40,865 bases of DNA, taken from UHGV virus genome UHGV-0180691, one strand, 5' to 3'. A model generated the notes under the pieces. It made no database searches. It worked only from the letters and a program-made list of their open reading frames with translations, and was not told where the DNA came from. Position numbers and translations under genes: made by a program. Shown one piece after another: positions 27,310 through 31,883 of this stretch; within the stretch, counting starts at the first letter, position 1, and each line of letters begins with the position of its first letter. The stretch is from a virus.

Positions 27310-28779
27310 ATGTCGAATTTACATGGTGTGGAAACGATCGAACTGACATCCGGCACGGTCGCGGTCATGACGATCCAGACGGCCATTATCGGCCTGGTGG
27401 GCACTGCGCCTGATGCCTCTGCCGGTACGCCAGCCAGTGCCAGCACGGGGACGCCAATCCTGGATAACGTTGTGGATTTTGCCGCGAAAATTGCCGGCAG
27501 GGCAGGAAACGTGGTGGTGGTTGAAGCTGTAGCCGGTATTCCCGATGCGGGGGATCCAGCGGAGGTGGGAACTTCCGCCATCTGGGATGCTACGGGGCTT
27601 AAGCTGACCATCACGCTTGGCTGTGATGAAGCTGGCAAGCTGACGGCTACTCCCGCAACTGTTGCTGCTGCCGTGAGGGCAGTCGCAGACGTGAAAGTAA
27701 ACGCAACGGGGGACGGTAGCGGTATTGTCTTACCGTTCAGTCTGCAGCTCGCTGGTGGCGAGGATGAGCCATTCCCCCTGAATACCCCGGTTGCAATTGT
27801 CGGTACCTCGATGCTCTCGCGTCTTGGGGACAAAGGCACGCTTAAGCAGGCGTTGACGGAAATCAACGACCAGCGAAATGCCCTGACCGTGGTAGTGCGT
27901 GTGGCGGAGGGGGCAGATGAAGCTGAGAAACGTGCAGCGGTGCTGGCCGGGATTGGCGCGCTGTCGTCGGCAAAATCCGTGACAACGTACCAGCCACGTA
28001 TCGTCATCGCACCGGGATTCAGTGAGGATGATGCGGTAGGCAAGGCACTGGAAACCGTTGCCGGCAAGCTGCGGGCTGTGGCGTATGTTGACTGTGAGTC
28101 CGGTGCCACGCTGCAGGAGGTTGTGCAGCGTCGCCAGTCTTATGGTACCCGCACCGAGCTGCTGCGTCCGCGTGTGCAGGTCAGCAACGCTGACGGTCAA
28201 CTTGTCTATCGTCCGTATTCTGCGTTTGCGGCGGGGCTGCGTGCCCGTATCGACTTTGAGAAGGGCTGGTGGTGGAGTAAATCCAACCAGGACATTAACA
28301 ACATCCTCGGCGTGGAGCAGATTGACGAGTTCATTCTGGGCGATGAAAACTGTGATGCGAATCTGCTCAACATGCAGAACGTGTCCACCATTATTCGCCG
28401 TGCAGGGTTTAAGCACTGGGGGAACCGCCTGTGCGGTACCAACCCGCAGTGGCGCTTTGAATCTGTTCGCCGTACCGCCGACGTCATCGAGGACAGTATC
28501 CAGGAAACGATGCTGGAGTACGTTGACCGCCCGCTGGACCGGGAAAACGCCGATGACATTATCGGCACCATCAATGCCTATATGCGCCAGCTGGTCGGGC
28601 TCGGTGCCATCTTCGGCGGACGTGCCTGGCTGGATGAGGAGCTTAACACCGCTGAGAGCATGGCGGCGGGCGTGCTGTACATCAACTATGACTTTGGTCC
28701 GAAATCGCCGACTGAGCTTATCAGCCTGCGCGTCCGGGTGAATAACAACTATGCGCTTGAGGAGATGCTGGCAGCATGA
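27310..28779 (+). CDS. contractile tail sheath protein
   Basis: ATG 27310 with GGAGAAAA RBS; about 490 aa; followed by tube, chaperone and tape-measure genes in canonical order. Confidence 0.8.
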   Translation: MSNLHGVETIELTSGTVAVMTIQTAIIGLVGTAPDASAGTPASASTGTPILDNVVDFAAKIAGRAGNVVVVEAVAGIPDAGDPAEVGTSAIWDATGLKLTITLGCDEAGKLTATPATVAAAVRAVADVKVNATGDGSGIVLPFSLQLAGGEDEPFPLNTPVAIVGTSMLSRLGDKGTLKQALTEINDQRNALTVVVRVAEGADEAEKRAAVLAGIGALSSAKSVTTYQPRIVIAPGFSEDDAVGKALETVAGKLRAVAYVDCESGATLQEVVQRRQSYGTRTELLRPRVQVSNADGQLVYRPYSAFAAGLRARIDFEKGWWWSKSNQDINNILGVEQIDEFILGDENCDANLLNMQNVSTIIRRAGFKHWGNRLCGTNPQWRFESVRRTADVIEDSIQETMLEYVDRPLDRENADDIIGTINAYMRQLVGLGAIFGGRAWLDEELNTAESMAAGVLYINYDFGPKSPTELISLRVRVNNNYALEEMLAA

Positions 28780-29282
28780 GCGAAAAAAACACACTACGCG
28801 TCTGGACCTTCTTCCGGCAGGGGGTCCGCATACAGGGGGCGCATGAATTCACCCCACCGACACTGTCCATTGTCAAAACTGATTTGCGTACCGGCGCGCA
28901 GGATGCGCCGTCCCCCGTGGATGACGGCATGGAGGCCCTGACCTGTCAGCTGAAATTCTACGGTATGGATACGGACATGCTGACCGCCTTCGGTTTTGTA
29001 AGCGGCAGCCGCCCGCGCTTTACGGCCTATCAGGGCTATCTGGCGAACGGTACCGCGCTTGGCACCGTCGAGGAGATCGAAGGCTTTGTGCAGACCGTTA
29101 CGCCGGATGCGCGGGGCAAGGACAATCTGTCCGAGAACGCCATCACGGTGGAAATCGCGGTGAGCTATTACCGCCAGACCAAAGACGGCAGGGAGCTTTT
29201 TGCTATTGATACCGAGCGCTTCGCGCGCCGGGTGAATGGTGTTGATGTACTGTCTGGACTGGCGGCGAAGGTCCGCCTCTGA
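28776..29282 (+). CDS. tail tube protein
   Basis: 168 aa directly after sheath, GAGGAG RBS; followed by terminator. Confidence 0.7.
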   Translation: MSEKNTLRVWTFFRQGVRIQGAHEFTPPTLSIVKTDLRTGAQDAPSPVDDGMEALTCQLKFYGMDTDMLTAFGFVSGSRPRFTAYQGYLANGTALGTVEEIEGFVQTVTPDARGKDNLSENAITVEIAVSYYRQTKDGRELFAIDTERFARRVNGVDVLSGLAAKVRL

Positions 29283-29301: not shown

Positions 29302-29324
29302 AACGGCCTGCGGGCCGTTTTTAC
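29302..29324 (+). terminator. rho-independent terminator after tail tube gene
   Basis: Stem CGGCC / GGCCG with short loop followed by T5. Confidence 0.55.
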
Positions 29325-29340
29325 TTTTTAAGGATTATTT

Positions 29341-29628
29341 ATGAGTTTTCCCGGTGAAACCCGCGTGATCAAACTGTATTCCCCTGTTTCGATTGAGAAC
29401 GGTGGCTTACTCGAACAGGTGACGATACGCGAACCGCTGGTGCGTGACCGCATCGCTTTTTCCAAAGACCACGGCAGTGAAGAAGAAAAAGAAGCGCGCA
29501 TGATTGCGTTATTGTGCAACCTCAGCGAGCAGGATATCTGGCAGCTCACAGCGGCGGATTATGCGCAGCTGCTGGACGCATTTAATGTTTTTATGCTCCC
29601 GCCCGCGGATCGACCGAAAGAGGTCTGA
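29341..29628 (+). CDS. tail assembly chaperone (P2 gpE-like)
   Basis: 95 aa acidic protein between tube and tape-measure genes; a 46-codon ORF in the -1 frame overlaps its 3' end. Confidence 0.6.
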   Translation: MSFPGETRVIKLYSPVSIENGGLLEQVTIREPLVRDRIAFSKDHGSEEEKEARMIALLCNLSEQDIWQLTAADYAQLLDAFNVFMLPPADRPKEV

Positions 29629-29768
29629 TGCGGGCGATACGCTTTCTCGGGCGGCGCCTGCATTTTCCCATGGCGGAATACCTGGACATGCCATTCAGTG
29701 TGTTTTCTGATTTTCTCACCGACGAAGTGGAGGCGGTAAATCGTGGCCGGATTAAGCCAGAACCTTAA
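29628..29768 (+). CDS. -1 frame extension ORF downstream of tail chaperone (E'-like; candidate programmed frameshift product)
   Basis: Hand translation MRAIRFLGRRLHFPMAEYLDMPFSVFSDFLTDEVEAVNRGRIKPEP; frame open from 29586; overlaps chaperone 3' end and tape-measure 5' end. Confidence 0.35.
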   Translation: MRAIRFLGRRLHFPMAEYLDMPFSVFSDFLTDEVEAVNRGRIKPEP

Positions 29769-31416
29769 GGCCGTCATTACCTTTGGCGGCAATATCGACA
29801 GCTCCTGGAGCCGTTCAGCGAACGGTTTGCAAAAGAGCCTGAAGGATGTCGGAAAGCAGTCAGAAAAACTGAGCAAAGACCAGGCTAAGCTGGCGGCGGA
29901 GATTAAGAAAGCAAAGCTTGCCGGGCAGAGCCTGGGCGATCTGAAACGCCGTTACAGCGATGTGTCCCGTGAAATCCGTAAAACGGAGTCCGAACAGCAG
30001 AAGCTGAACCAGCAGATGCAGAAGGCGCAGCGGCTGGCGTCATTTAAGGGGGCAGGTAAAGGATTGTTTCGCCGCGGTCTGGGTATCGCCGGACAGCTGG
30101 GCGGCATGGTGGCACCGGGGCTGGCGATCGGCGGCGGCGGGGTTGTGGCCTCCGCACTGGGCACTCTGATTGCCCCGGCGGCCACCAACGCGGAAACGGC
30201 CAGACGCGCCGGCGTGGCGAAAAGCTATGGCGTCGATATCCCGACGTTTGATGCATGGGACACCCTCGCAAAACAGTACGACATGAACGGAGAGAATATC
30301 GGCGATCTGTTTGAGGAGTATCTGCACAAGGCGGGGGAGTACAAGCAGAACGGCAAACAGGGCTCACTGCAGGATGCGTTTGAAACGCTGGGCTTCAAAG
30401 CCGGCGACTTTGCCGGCCTGAGCGATATGGCGCAGTTTGAAAGAATCGTCGAGCGTGCGCTCAGTCTGCAGGATGAGTCAAAAGCTTCGTTTGCTCTTGA
30501 TTCGCTGTTTGGCGGCGAGGCCAGCAAGCTGCTGATGCTACTGAAGCAGTCCGGGAAAAGTTACCGCGACCTGATGGACGAGCAGCGTCGGTATAACCTC
30601 GTCACGAAAGAGGGGGCTGAAGGCGCGATGGCGGGCAATCGTGCCATTACTAATCTGCAGACCGTTTTCTCTTCTGCACTGGCGGAAATCTCCGGCCAGC
30701 TCGGTAACGAACTGGCGCCGGATATCCGACGCCTGACTGACGATATGGCGGAGTGGTTTAAAGGCGGGGGGATCAAACGCATCGTCAGTTTTCTACGCAA
30801 TGATCTCTACCCAGGCGTGCTGACGTTCGGGCAGGGGATCGTTTTCGTCGGGAAAGTGGCGTATGCGCTGGCGAAAAAACTGTCCTGGTTGTTGCCGGAT
30901 GAGCGAAGCGATCAGCGTGATGTGCTCAAATCGCTGGCCATGACCGGCTCGGTCGATATCGCCCGCATGACGGCGCAGCGTAACGGCCAGGGAGAGTGGT
31001 TCGAACAGCAGCTCAAAGAAAAACCGGGTCTGCCGGACGATGTGAAAAAATCGTACCGGGATACGCGAGGTATCTTCAGTGATGACAATGAAGGCTTTGA
31101 TAAATCACTGGATAAATATCTGACACCGGAAAACAGCGGACCGCTGTTTGGCCTGGATAGGGCTCAGAGCAATAGCGCGTCGGCTTCAGGCGACGGAGGT
31201 TACTGGGATGCACTTCTCCAGCGCCTTGATACAGCCGACCAGCAGCCACAGGCAAGGCAGCTTACTGACAACCGGAAATTCGAATACCGTTTCGAAATTA
31301 ACGGAGCACCCGGACAAAGCGAGCAAGGTATAGCTGATGCGGTCGAGGGGGTGACGAAAACCAGCCCGGCGTTTACGGGTAACAGCAGCATGATGGACGG
31401 AGGACAAATCTGGTGA
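29743..31416 (+). CDS. tail tape measure protein
   Basis: GTG 29743 with GGAGG RBS; 557 aa; coiled-coil-rich N-terminus, Gly-rich hydrophobic segment (GIAGQLGGMVAPGLAIGGGGVVASALG); position after chaperone. Confidence 0.75.
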   Translation: MAGLSQNLKAVITFGGNIDSSWSRSANGLQKSLKDVGKQSEKLSKDQAKLAAEIKKAKLAGQSLGDLKRRYSDVSREIRKTESEQQKLNQQMQKAQRLASFKGAGKGLFRRGLGIAGQLGGMVAPGLAIGGGGVVASALGTLIAPAATNAETARRAGVAKSYGVDIPTFDAWDTLAKQYDMNGENIGDLFEEYLHKAGEYKQNGKQGSLQDAFETLGFKAGDFAGLSDMAQFERIVERALSLQDESKASFALDSLFGGEASKLLMLLKQSGKSYRDLMDEQRRYNLVTKEGAEGAMAGNRAITNLQTVFSSALAEISGQLGNELAPDIRRLTDDMAEWFKGGGIKRIVSFLRNDLYPGVLTFGQGIVFVGKVAYALAKKLSWLLPDERSDQRDVLKSLAMTGSVDIARMTAQRNGQGEWFEQQLKEKPGLPDDVKKSYRDTRGIFSDDNEGFDKSLDKYLTPENSGPLFGLDRAQSNSASASGDGGYWDALLQRLDTADQQPQARQLTDNRKFEYRFEINGAPGQSEQGIADAVEGVTKTSPAFTGNSSMMDGGQIW

Positions 31417-31883
31417 GTGAAATCGTTCCGGTCTATGAAGACTTCGGACAGTCGTGGTCCGGCGCTGTCCGTGGCGCACAGGCCGCCCGAGTGATGATGA
31501 TGCTGGGCGACTTTGCCTTTTCGATTGATACCACCGCGTACAGCCAACTGACCCGTGAGGCCAGCTGGCGCTGGAGTGAGCAGGAGCGGATCGGTAAACA
31601 GGATTTACTGCAGTATACCGGCAAGCCCGGGCGAACGGTTCGGCTTGAAGGGGAGTCGCATGCTTTCTTCCGCAAGGGGGTGGATGCCGTCAACGATCTC
31701 TTCGACCTCGCAGATCAGAATAAGCCACAACAACTGGTCAGCGGCGAAGGGGATGTGCTTGGCTGGTGGGTGGTTATCGACTTCTCCGACACAACCAGCC
31801 GTTTCCTGCCAGGCGGTGGCCACCGAAATAAAAACTGGACGATGACGCTGAAACATTATGCCGACGACATATCAAACCCGTGA
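31413..31883 (+). CDS. tail protein U-like (gpU family)
   Basis: 156 aa; GTG start overlapping tape-measure stop; position and size as P2 U / R-pyocin U-like. Confidence 0.55.
   Translation: MSEIVPVYEDFGQSWSGAVRGAQAARVMMMLGDFAFSIDTTAYSQLTREASWRWSEQERIGKQDLLQYTGKPGRTVRLEGESHAFFRKGVDAVNDLFDLADQNKPQQLVSGEGDVLGWWVVIDFSDTTSRFLPGGGHRNKNWTMTLKHYADDISNP

Follow-up and report, generated by a model that had tools for sequence, protein, structure and literature searches.

A conserved -1-frame extension of a predicted P2 gpE-type tail assembly chaperone, probably reached by slippage at a U_UUU tetramer, in prophage-like DNA

The window analyzed in this study is the whole 40,865-nt stretch of the virus genome UHGV-0180691. 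A gene on the plus strand at 29341..29628, preceded by AAGGA at 29330-34 (six nt 5' of the start) and closed by the stop TGA 29626-28, encodes a 95-aa protein in what we call the zero frame. This protein matched the Pfam family PF10109 (Phage_TAC_7; E=7.2e-11, 42.4 bits, gathering score 25), which is described as 'tail assembly chaperone proteins E, or 41 or 14', as well as the PHROGs family phrog_166 'tail protein' (E=2e-24), and its N-terminal domain was approximately 29% identical to that of P2 gpE. The gene is located between its upstream neighbour, the tail tube gene (28776..29282, plus strand; Pfam PF04985 Phage_tube, E=8.5e-21), and the tape-measure gene (29743..31416, plus strand), which has a GTG start and the sequence GGAGG at 29729-33. 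The 557-aa tape-measure product matched phrog_3654 (E=2e-228) in addition to several other tape-measure PHROGs, and the same start at GTG 29743 is annotated in relatives. The tape-measure gene in turn lies between the chaperone gene and a gpU homologue (31413-31883; PF06995). Sheath and tube genes were found 5' of the chaperone gene, and homologues of the tape-measure, gpU, X, D, W, and J genes follow in this order on its 3' side. The tail module is of the P2-type contractile class and lies in prophage-like DNA, and its chaperone gene is assigned by sequence to the P2 gpE type of tail assembly chaperones. Rfam and tRNA scans of the whole window found nothing.

In the -1 frame relative to the chaperone gene, an open frame extends from 29586 to the TAA at 29766-68 and comprises 60 sense codons. 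Its position was read from the sequence as the original prediction had described it: it shares the 14 final codons of the chaperone, and its end overlaps the first 26 nt of the tape-measure gene. The opening at 29586 was likewise correct, whereas the length of 46 codons given for the frame was not, as the 46-codon ORF is the ATG-started part (29628-29768) of the 60-codon frame (29586-29768). The chaperone stop overlaps this ATG in the form TGATG, and, together with an SD-like AAGAGG (29618-23), the ATG at 29628 constitutes a possible, non-conserved independent or reinitiation start (29618..29630, plus strand) for a 46-aa E' peptide. Among annotated relatives, the closest are Citrobacter phage Chris1 (79% DNA identity) and a prophage of Escherichia coli SC476, and in both annotations there is a gap of approximately 100 nt where E' sits.

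To describe conservation, we used 80 loci from IMG/VR, 23 genome loci, and several phage records, all encoding relatives of the chaperone; the conservation counts rest on 58 distinct colinear relatives. The overlapping -1 ORF was present in these homologs, and its stop occupied the identical position in 58 of 58. Within 29629-29742, which overlaps no other gene, the mean entropy was 0.68 at the third position of the -1 frame, compared with 0.26 and 0.08 at the first and second positions, and the segment 29631-29669 displayed a clean -1-frame periodicity. The dN/dS values (Nei-Gojobori, calculated against twelve relatives) ranged from 0.04 to 0.17 in the -1 frame and were approximately 1 or more in the other two frames. 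Additionally, the E' peptide (...R[FL]LGRRLHFPMx[ED]YLDMPFSxF...) could be traced down to relatives whose chaperones are 45-55% identical. By a simple calculation, a 60-codon open frame is expected by chance with a probability of (61/64)^60, or approximately 0.06, so its length by itself is unconvincing and the case for the -1 ORF rests on the comparative evidence. The conserved stop, the variation at third positions, the dN/dS values, and the recognisable peptide in distant relatives indicate that the -1 region is a real coding segment under purifying selection and not a product of chance.

The proposed E'-like extension (29592..29768, plus strand) comprises 58 aa of the post-slip -1 frame, YAPARGSTERGLMRAIRFLGRRLHFPMAEYLDMPFSVFSDFLTDEVEAVNRGRIKPEP, and ends at the stop TAA 29766-68. 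Neither this E' nor 21 members of its family matched PF06528 (Phage_P2_GpE, the P2 E' family), and the extension had no match in PHROGs. An hhalign comparison with P2 E' alone was not significant and aligned HFPMAEYLDM with HWPPSELYPM. A comparison with pooled E' extensions, in an alignment built by hand from those of P2, WO, Mica, phiRSP, Alexa, PPpW-3, Valp1, MQ-4, and ZRG1, gave a probability of 91% (E=1e-6). The pooled comparison provides moderate evidence that the extension may be a divergent member of the same E' class. When the predicted fusion was compared with the P2 fusion by BLASTP, the N-terminal domains alone aligned. No natural in-frame E+E' fusion was present among the candidates retrieved from a collection of 5.8 billion proteins (top coverage, 68%), in which the longer matches were N-terminal mis-starts, chimeras, or indel-containing contigs, and no annotated joined product was found in the protein collection. 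A sequence search of solved structures identified no relatives, and an alignment-free structure prediction of the fusion reached a pLDDT of 46 and was unusable.

The ATG at 29628 was found in 13 of the 58 relatives, and the others carry ATC (19), CTC (18), ATT (6), AGG, or CTT at this position. Furthermore, in 36 of 71 distinct relatives the -1 frame contains none of ATG, GTG, and TTG ahead of the codon at 29670; in the rest, the starts are scattered. Because there is no conserved start, yet 29631-29669 is under coding constraint, the sequences imply that E' must be reached via the upstream gene at the family level. The same argument, based on the lack of a start of its own, has been applied to P2 E' (in the passage of PMC3931495 that cites Christie et al. 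2002).

Alternatively, ribosomes might terminate at TGA 29626-28 and reinitiate at ATG 29628 through the TGATG overlap, assisted by the SD-like AAGAGG, which would produce E' as a separate 46-aa peptide and would require no frameshift in this phage. The overlap is present, AAGAGG is located four nt 5' of the ATG, this ATG is shared by about a quarter of the distinct relatives, and the 46-aa ORF has been predicted by gene callers in metagenomes (P0002, 52 member sequences). However, the ATG is replaced in 45 of the 58 relatives, whose E' stays intact and under purifying selection, half of the distinct relatives are without a canonical start before 29670, and U_UUU is invariant in the ATG-bearing lineages too. 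A free E' would also be physically uncoupled from the chaperone domain, and this coupling is the very purpose of the G/GT and E/E+E' design (lambda; PMC5009743). As a family-wide mechanism, reinitiation is ruled out by the distribution of the ATG and by the start-less relatives. We consider it unlikely to be the sole route to E' in this phage and rate it higher as an additional one; TGATG reinitiation is a possible second route here.

Judging from the sequence comparisons, -1 frameshifting is likely to be the main route to E'. In the mechanism proposed here, most ribosomes would stop at TGA 29626-28 and yield the 95-aa protein, and a minority would slip back by one nt with tRNA-Phe on UUU 29590-92, re-pairing to UUU 29589-91. 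The slipped ribosomes would decode UAU 29592-94 next and stay in the -1 frame as far as TAA 29766-68, resulting in a 142-aa fusion (84 + 58 residues) of the form ...DAFNVF-YAPARGSTERGLMRAIRFLG...KPEP. How often the slip occurs would determine the ratio between the short and the long product. In analogy to lambda G/GT and P2 E/E+E', the common N-terminal domain may coat the tape-measure protein, and the C-terminal domain found in the frameshift product only may recruit the tube protein (PMC5009743). We infer the occurrence and frequency of the slip, the ribosomal site (A or P) at which it would take place, and the fusion protein itself from the nucleotide sequence, and the roles of the two protein domains from these analogies.

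The interval in which the shift could occur is limited on its 5' side by the -1-frame TAA at 29583..29585 (plus strand), which was read from the sequence and is shared by 52 of 58 relatives (6 have CAA), and on its 3' side by the zero-frame stop, which lies at 29623-29638 among the relatives. At the site, the zero frame reads AAU GUU UUU AUG. The GTTTTTA to which the original prediction had drawn attention is located at 29587-93, and the doubt expressed about it as a heptamer was justified, since the zero frame divides it as T_GTT_TTT, followed by ATG, and not as X_XXY_YYZ. No X_XXY_YYZ heptamer occurs in the overlap of this phage, which has the tetramer U_UUU alone (29589..29592, plus strand; Phe codon UUU 29590-92 after U29589). 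This tetramer is of the Z_ZZN type, i.e., a motif for cognate re-pairing of one tRNA, and by codon pairing tRNA-Phe is predicted to be the only tRNA able to re-pair after a -1 slip. If UUU is placed in the A site, as in the Mica register, the P-site Val codon lands on UGU or CGU, as base 29586 varies between T and C; if UUU is placed in the P site, as in the P2 register, the A-site codon is AUG, not UUG. In E. coli, U_UUU counts among the established -1 tetramers, whose tested order is A_AAG >> U_UUC > U_UUU > C_CCY > A_AAA, and in an E. coli reporter tetramers gave 0.26-5.6% shifting with a pseudoknot and approximately 0.15%, barely above background, without one (PMC4066793).

Positions 29587-29597 did not vary among the 58 relatives, not even at the synonymous sites 29589 and 29592, and 29587-29604 were nearly invariant (entropy of 0.00, 0.00, and 0.06 by codon position), a segment that covers the synonymous sites 29589, 29592, 29601, and 29604. 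Zero-frame third positions just 5' of 29587 had a mean entropy of 0.89. Among slip-prone sequences, U_UUU (29589-92) alone was retained by all relatives that share this E'. Downstream, both frames were weakly constrained in 29604-29625 (pN ~ pS), and the substitution patterns in this segment did not pin the exact shift point.

In the slip column, the zero frame reads GTT TTT ATG in the clade of this phage, Chris1, and yong2, CGT TTT ATG in Rouxiella, AAT TTT TTG in Serratia rubidaea, and CGT TTT TTG in Citrobacter sp. ANG330; the latter two are distant relatives that have the same E' and carry canonical heptamers. In the wider PF10109 family, the zero frame reads GGT TTT TTG (P2 and Wolbachia WO), GAT TTT TTT (WO VitA), xxA AAT TTT (Mica, Alexa, and MQ-4), xxG GGT TTT (phiRSP, Valp1, and Sulfuricurvum), GGT TTC (PPpW-3), or TCT TTT TCG (ZRG1). 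Full heptamers were identified in the same position in WO, Mica, Alexa, MQ-4, phiRSP, Valp1, and the relatives L105 and L106, and ZRG1 provides an example of a tetramer-only site (U_UUU) elsewhere in the family. The pattern NNT TTT (NNT TTC in PPpW-3) was kept in all relatives with a -1 extension except for the pair formed by E. coli phage vB_EcoM-569R10 and an E. whittamii prophage, in which a tetramer-only site in GTA AAG (A_AAG) is located two codons downstream. Because the residue before Phe varies (V/R/N/G/D/S) and its codon ends in T throughout, the constraint acts at the nucleotide level and not at the protein level.

The alignment with P2 E that had been proposed as a check placed the Phe of this UUU in the column of the Phe at the annotated P2 slip site: Phe84 of this chaperone, Phe84 of P2, and the Phe of Mica share one column of the protein alignment, and the Phe residues here and in P2 both fall at approximately position 77 of the PF10109 profile. 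The GenBank record of P2 (AF063097) marks a -1 frameshift at T_TTT_TTG, and the record of Mica annotates a joined frameshift product. On this comparative basis, the slip site is probably U_UUU at 29589-92, a reduced form of the heptamers that relatives have at this codon. The E/E+E'-like arrangement suggested earlier is supported at the sequence level by a PF10109 gene between the tube and tape-measure genes, a selected -1 ORF without a conserved start, and U_UUU in the P2 slip column.

A shift in the same direction could instead take place at C_CCG (29598-29601), where peptidyl-tRNA-Pro would slip during slow Pro-Pro bond formation and give the junction ...NVFMLP-ARGSTER. C_CCG is also a Z_ZZN tetramer, with 1.8- to 3.6-fold activity over background in E. 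coli (PMC4066793); CCGCCC is invariant across the 58 close relatives, Pro-Pro is conserved in the subfamily, and the substitution patterns demand only a shift upstream of approximately 29604. Nevertheless, base 29598 is G, T, or A in yong2, Rouxiella, Rosenbergiella, Tatumella, the loci L067, L072, and L080, and others with the same E'. Because this base is not conserved, re-pairing at C_CCG would fail in those relatives, all of which keep U_UUU. P2, Mica, and WO have nothing equivalent to the C_CCG site. We regard a shift at C_CCG as improbable, more so than reinitiation as the sole route.

Slippage of RNA polymerase on the T5 run, which would generate mRNAs one base shorter or two bases longer and thereby place E' in frame at the RNA level, appears very improbable. 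Efficient transcriptional slippage in bacteria takes place on runs of about 7-9 or more; the run here consists of 5 T, that of a Rouxiella relative (L104) of 4, and those of relatives with A_AAT_TTT or G_GGT_TTT are shorter still, even though the sequence is a homopolymeric T run and long A or T runs have been tied to transcriptional slippage (PMC4066793 and PMC5009743). Equally remote is the reading of the -1 ORF as a frame open by chance, or as a spacer without coding function between the chaperone gene and the tape-measure gene: 60 open codons are not very improbable and the 60-aa translation is unrecognised by Pfam and PHROGs, but this reading is excluded by the stop shared by all 58 relatives, the third-position periodicity, and the low dN/dS confined to the -1 frame, and it is further opposed by the retention of the peptide beside diverged chaperones and by the hhalign relationship to other E' extensions.

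Returning to slippage at U_UUU, we looked for elements that might stimulate it. GC-rich pairings are possible 6-8 nt past UUU, between 29598-605 and 29648-56 or between 29600-06 and 29630-36. The folding z-scores of this phage and 18 relatives ranged from -2 to +1 in single-sequence folds and were not unusual, RNAalifold detected no consensus pairs in 54 sequences, and both hand-named stems displayed no covariation beyond controls. In both stems, the 5' arm is invariant and the 3' arm is altered at synonymous -1-frame sites, which breaks pairs. A downstream stimulatory RNA structure is unsupported by these three analyses (z-scores, RNAalifold, and covariation). No convincing SD-like element was found 6-17 nt upstream of the slip site. 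Pro-Pro stalling as a stimulator of U_UUU was rejected for its wrong geometry, since UUU lies three codons 5' of the stalled P site.

The shifting efficiency could be low, and this is the main weakness of the proposed mechanism. As a speculative reading that we hold to be rather doubtful, this clade of enterobacterial prophages might have swapped the two-tRNA heptamer of the family for a bare U_UUU without a recognisable RNA stimulator, either with a stimulator that has escaped recognition or with TGATG termination-reinitiation added as a second E' route in some lineages, this phage included. Candidates for a stimulator are the invariant 12 nt downstream (AUGCUCCCGCCC), which would act inside the mRNA channel, and the nascent ...AFNVF peptide. 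If this reading is true, a second route would provide two ways to set the ratio of chaperone to extension.

Taken as a whole, the locus is an ordinary tail-chaperone feature, probably with two products, and its slip site is weaker than the textbook form. E' is unannotated or appears as an orphan small ORF in the records of Citrobacter phage Chris1, the E. coli SC476 prophage, Hafnia phage yong2, Wolbachia WO, and Vibrio phage Valp1. The joined 142-aa product proposed here would correct the annotation in a widespread group of enterobacterial prophage tails, and no model in Pfam or PHROGs picks up this E' family. In addition, the turnover of slip sites at one fixed Phe codon (T_TTT_TTG, A_AAT_TTT, G_GGT_TTT, and bare U_UUU) offers a natural series for how much slipperiness a tail chaperone needs. 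The general picture derived from lambda, P2, and Mu is unchanged, and the value of the present result lies chiefly in annotation and in one point in the variant series.

Among known systems, the tetramer (Z_ZZN) sites of the IS1/IS3 family have a single-tRNA slip motif, as does the site proposed here, and U_UU[U,C] is one of their three predominant tetramers (PMC4066793). The IS sites are usually accompanied by a hairpin or pseudoknot on the 3' side, an SD-like stimulator on the 5' side, or both, whereas none is supported here; for a tetramer-type signal, the 3' structure would be expected 5-8 nt away. Lambda gpG and gpGT follow the same logic at the same genome position, i.e., two products with a common N-terminus, the longer one made by a low-frequency -1 shift just 5' of the tape-measure gene. 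Neither gpG nor gpGT is in the virion, and the product ratio matters in tail assembly (PMC5009743). Lambda is a siphovirus, and its chaperone belongs to a different family with no detectable sequence similarity to this one; it also has the canonical heptamer G_GGA_AAG, whereas there is none here.

The likeness to Mu is only loose. Mu gp41 is named in the PF10109 description, lies between the tube and tape-measure genes, and has a longer product made via recoding (PMC5009743), so that chaperone family and gene position agree. The type of shift does not, since the GenBank record of Mu annotates a verified -2 shift and the conserved coding frame here is -1. Separately, two distant relatives, L108 (Pseudomonas) and L110 (Sulfurospirillum), have the extension in the +1/-2 frame, like Mu.

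The chaperones of Burkholderia phage Mica, Acinetobacter phage Alexa, and Serratia phage MQ-4 share the PF10109 family and the layout found here. The A-site UUU of their heptamer (A_AAT_TTT) occupies the same column as the UUU of this phage. In these three phages, the P-site AAT after A is re-pairable, in contrast to GTT after T or C in this clade, and their zero frame stops 2-3 codons past the site, compared with 11 codons here.

P2 gpE shares the PF10109 N-terminal domain with this chaperone, and E lies between the tube (FII) and tape-measure (T) genes, the same place as here, although the gene order of this module (V-sheath-tube-E-T-U-X-D-W-J) is unlike that of P2. Christie and co-workers are said to have found that the P2 fusion is made at about 10% and is essential. 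As in the present phage, the -1 ORF of P2 begins in the 3' end of E, is without a conserved start of its own, and stops inside the beginning of T. The E' of P2 matches PF06528, whereas the E' described here does not and is related at the profile-profile level to the pooled alignment. The -1 frameshift of P2 occurs at T_TTT_TTG, according to the account of Christie et al. 2002 in PMC3931495. P2 has this full heptamer, whereas the present phage has T_GTT_TTT followed by ATG, with Phe as the one re-pairing tRNA. P2 slips on the Phe UUU codon that shares an alignment column with the one proposed here, and P2 gpE+E' comprises 142 aa, equal to the fusion predicted here.

Two codons after the proposed U_UUU slip site (29589-29592), the chaperone gene encodes a zero-frame Pro-Pro pair (CCG CCC, 29599-29604, + strand) that is conserved across the enterobacterial subfamily. 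In distant members of this subfamily, its codons vary synonymously (CCT CCT, CCC CCG, or CCG CCA), indicating protein-level selection on Pro-Pro. P2 and Mica lack the pair, unlike the enterobacterial subfamily. A role of Pro-Pro as a stimulator of the U_UUU slip was also considered and rejected, as the geometry argues against it.

The T run is absent from two more distant relatives, Escherichia phage vB_EcoM-569R10 (L087) and a locus of E. whittamii (L107). Two codons downstream, immediately 5' of the conserved Pro-Pro, both loci have GTA AAG, which contains the tetramer A_AAG; the zero-frame codons GTA AAG CCT CCG lie shortly 5' of the stop codon at 965-967 in L087 and at 1065-1067 in L107. 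The candidate slip site is shifted in position and switched in type within the subfamily.

The extension E' was truncated in one relative, IMGVR_UViG_2851654087_000003 (L004), by the loss of a single base from the GGGCGG run equivalent to 29650-29655 of the window. This locus is otherwise near-identical to the window, and the deletion reflects an error in sequencing or else a prophage that is defective.

Among the 16 records examined, a joined frameshift CDS was present only in those of P2, Mica, and Mu. The annotated relatives in which E' was unannotated or called separately were L001, L002, L086, L120, L124, and L125. It has no annotation in Citrobacter phage Chris1 or in E. coli SC476 as annotated by PGAP, and is called as a separate small ORF, labeled 'hypothetical protein' or 'gpGT', in yong2, WO, and Valp1.

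The 58-nt gap between the tube and chaperone genes contains a terminator-like hairpin (29302-29329, + strand; AACGGCC-TGCG-GGCCGTT, then TTTTACTTTTT), and its stem is conserved in the E. coli SC476 prophage as well as in Chris1. This hairpin may act as a partial terminator, lowering the expression of the chaperone and tape-measure genes relative to that of the sheath and tube genes.

The best PHROG match of the tape-measure protein (29743-31416) was phrog_3654 (E=2e-228), labeled 'unknown function', and its matches to tape-measure PHROGs were weak only. At 557 aa, this protein is shorter than P2 gpT (2448 nt, ~815 aa).

In two distant PF10109 relatives, from Pseudomonas caspiana (L108) and Sulfurospirillum (L110), the extension lies in the +1/-2 frame. 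Their extension peptides look conserved (...NFSAEEIMSMSFSDMVWW... and ...FHFGFEDCLQMYVSELLE..., respectively), and NNT TTT is retained in both loci. The +1/-2-frame extension is a feature that L108 and L110 have in common with Mu.
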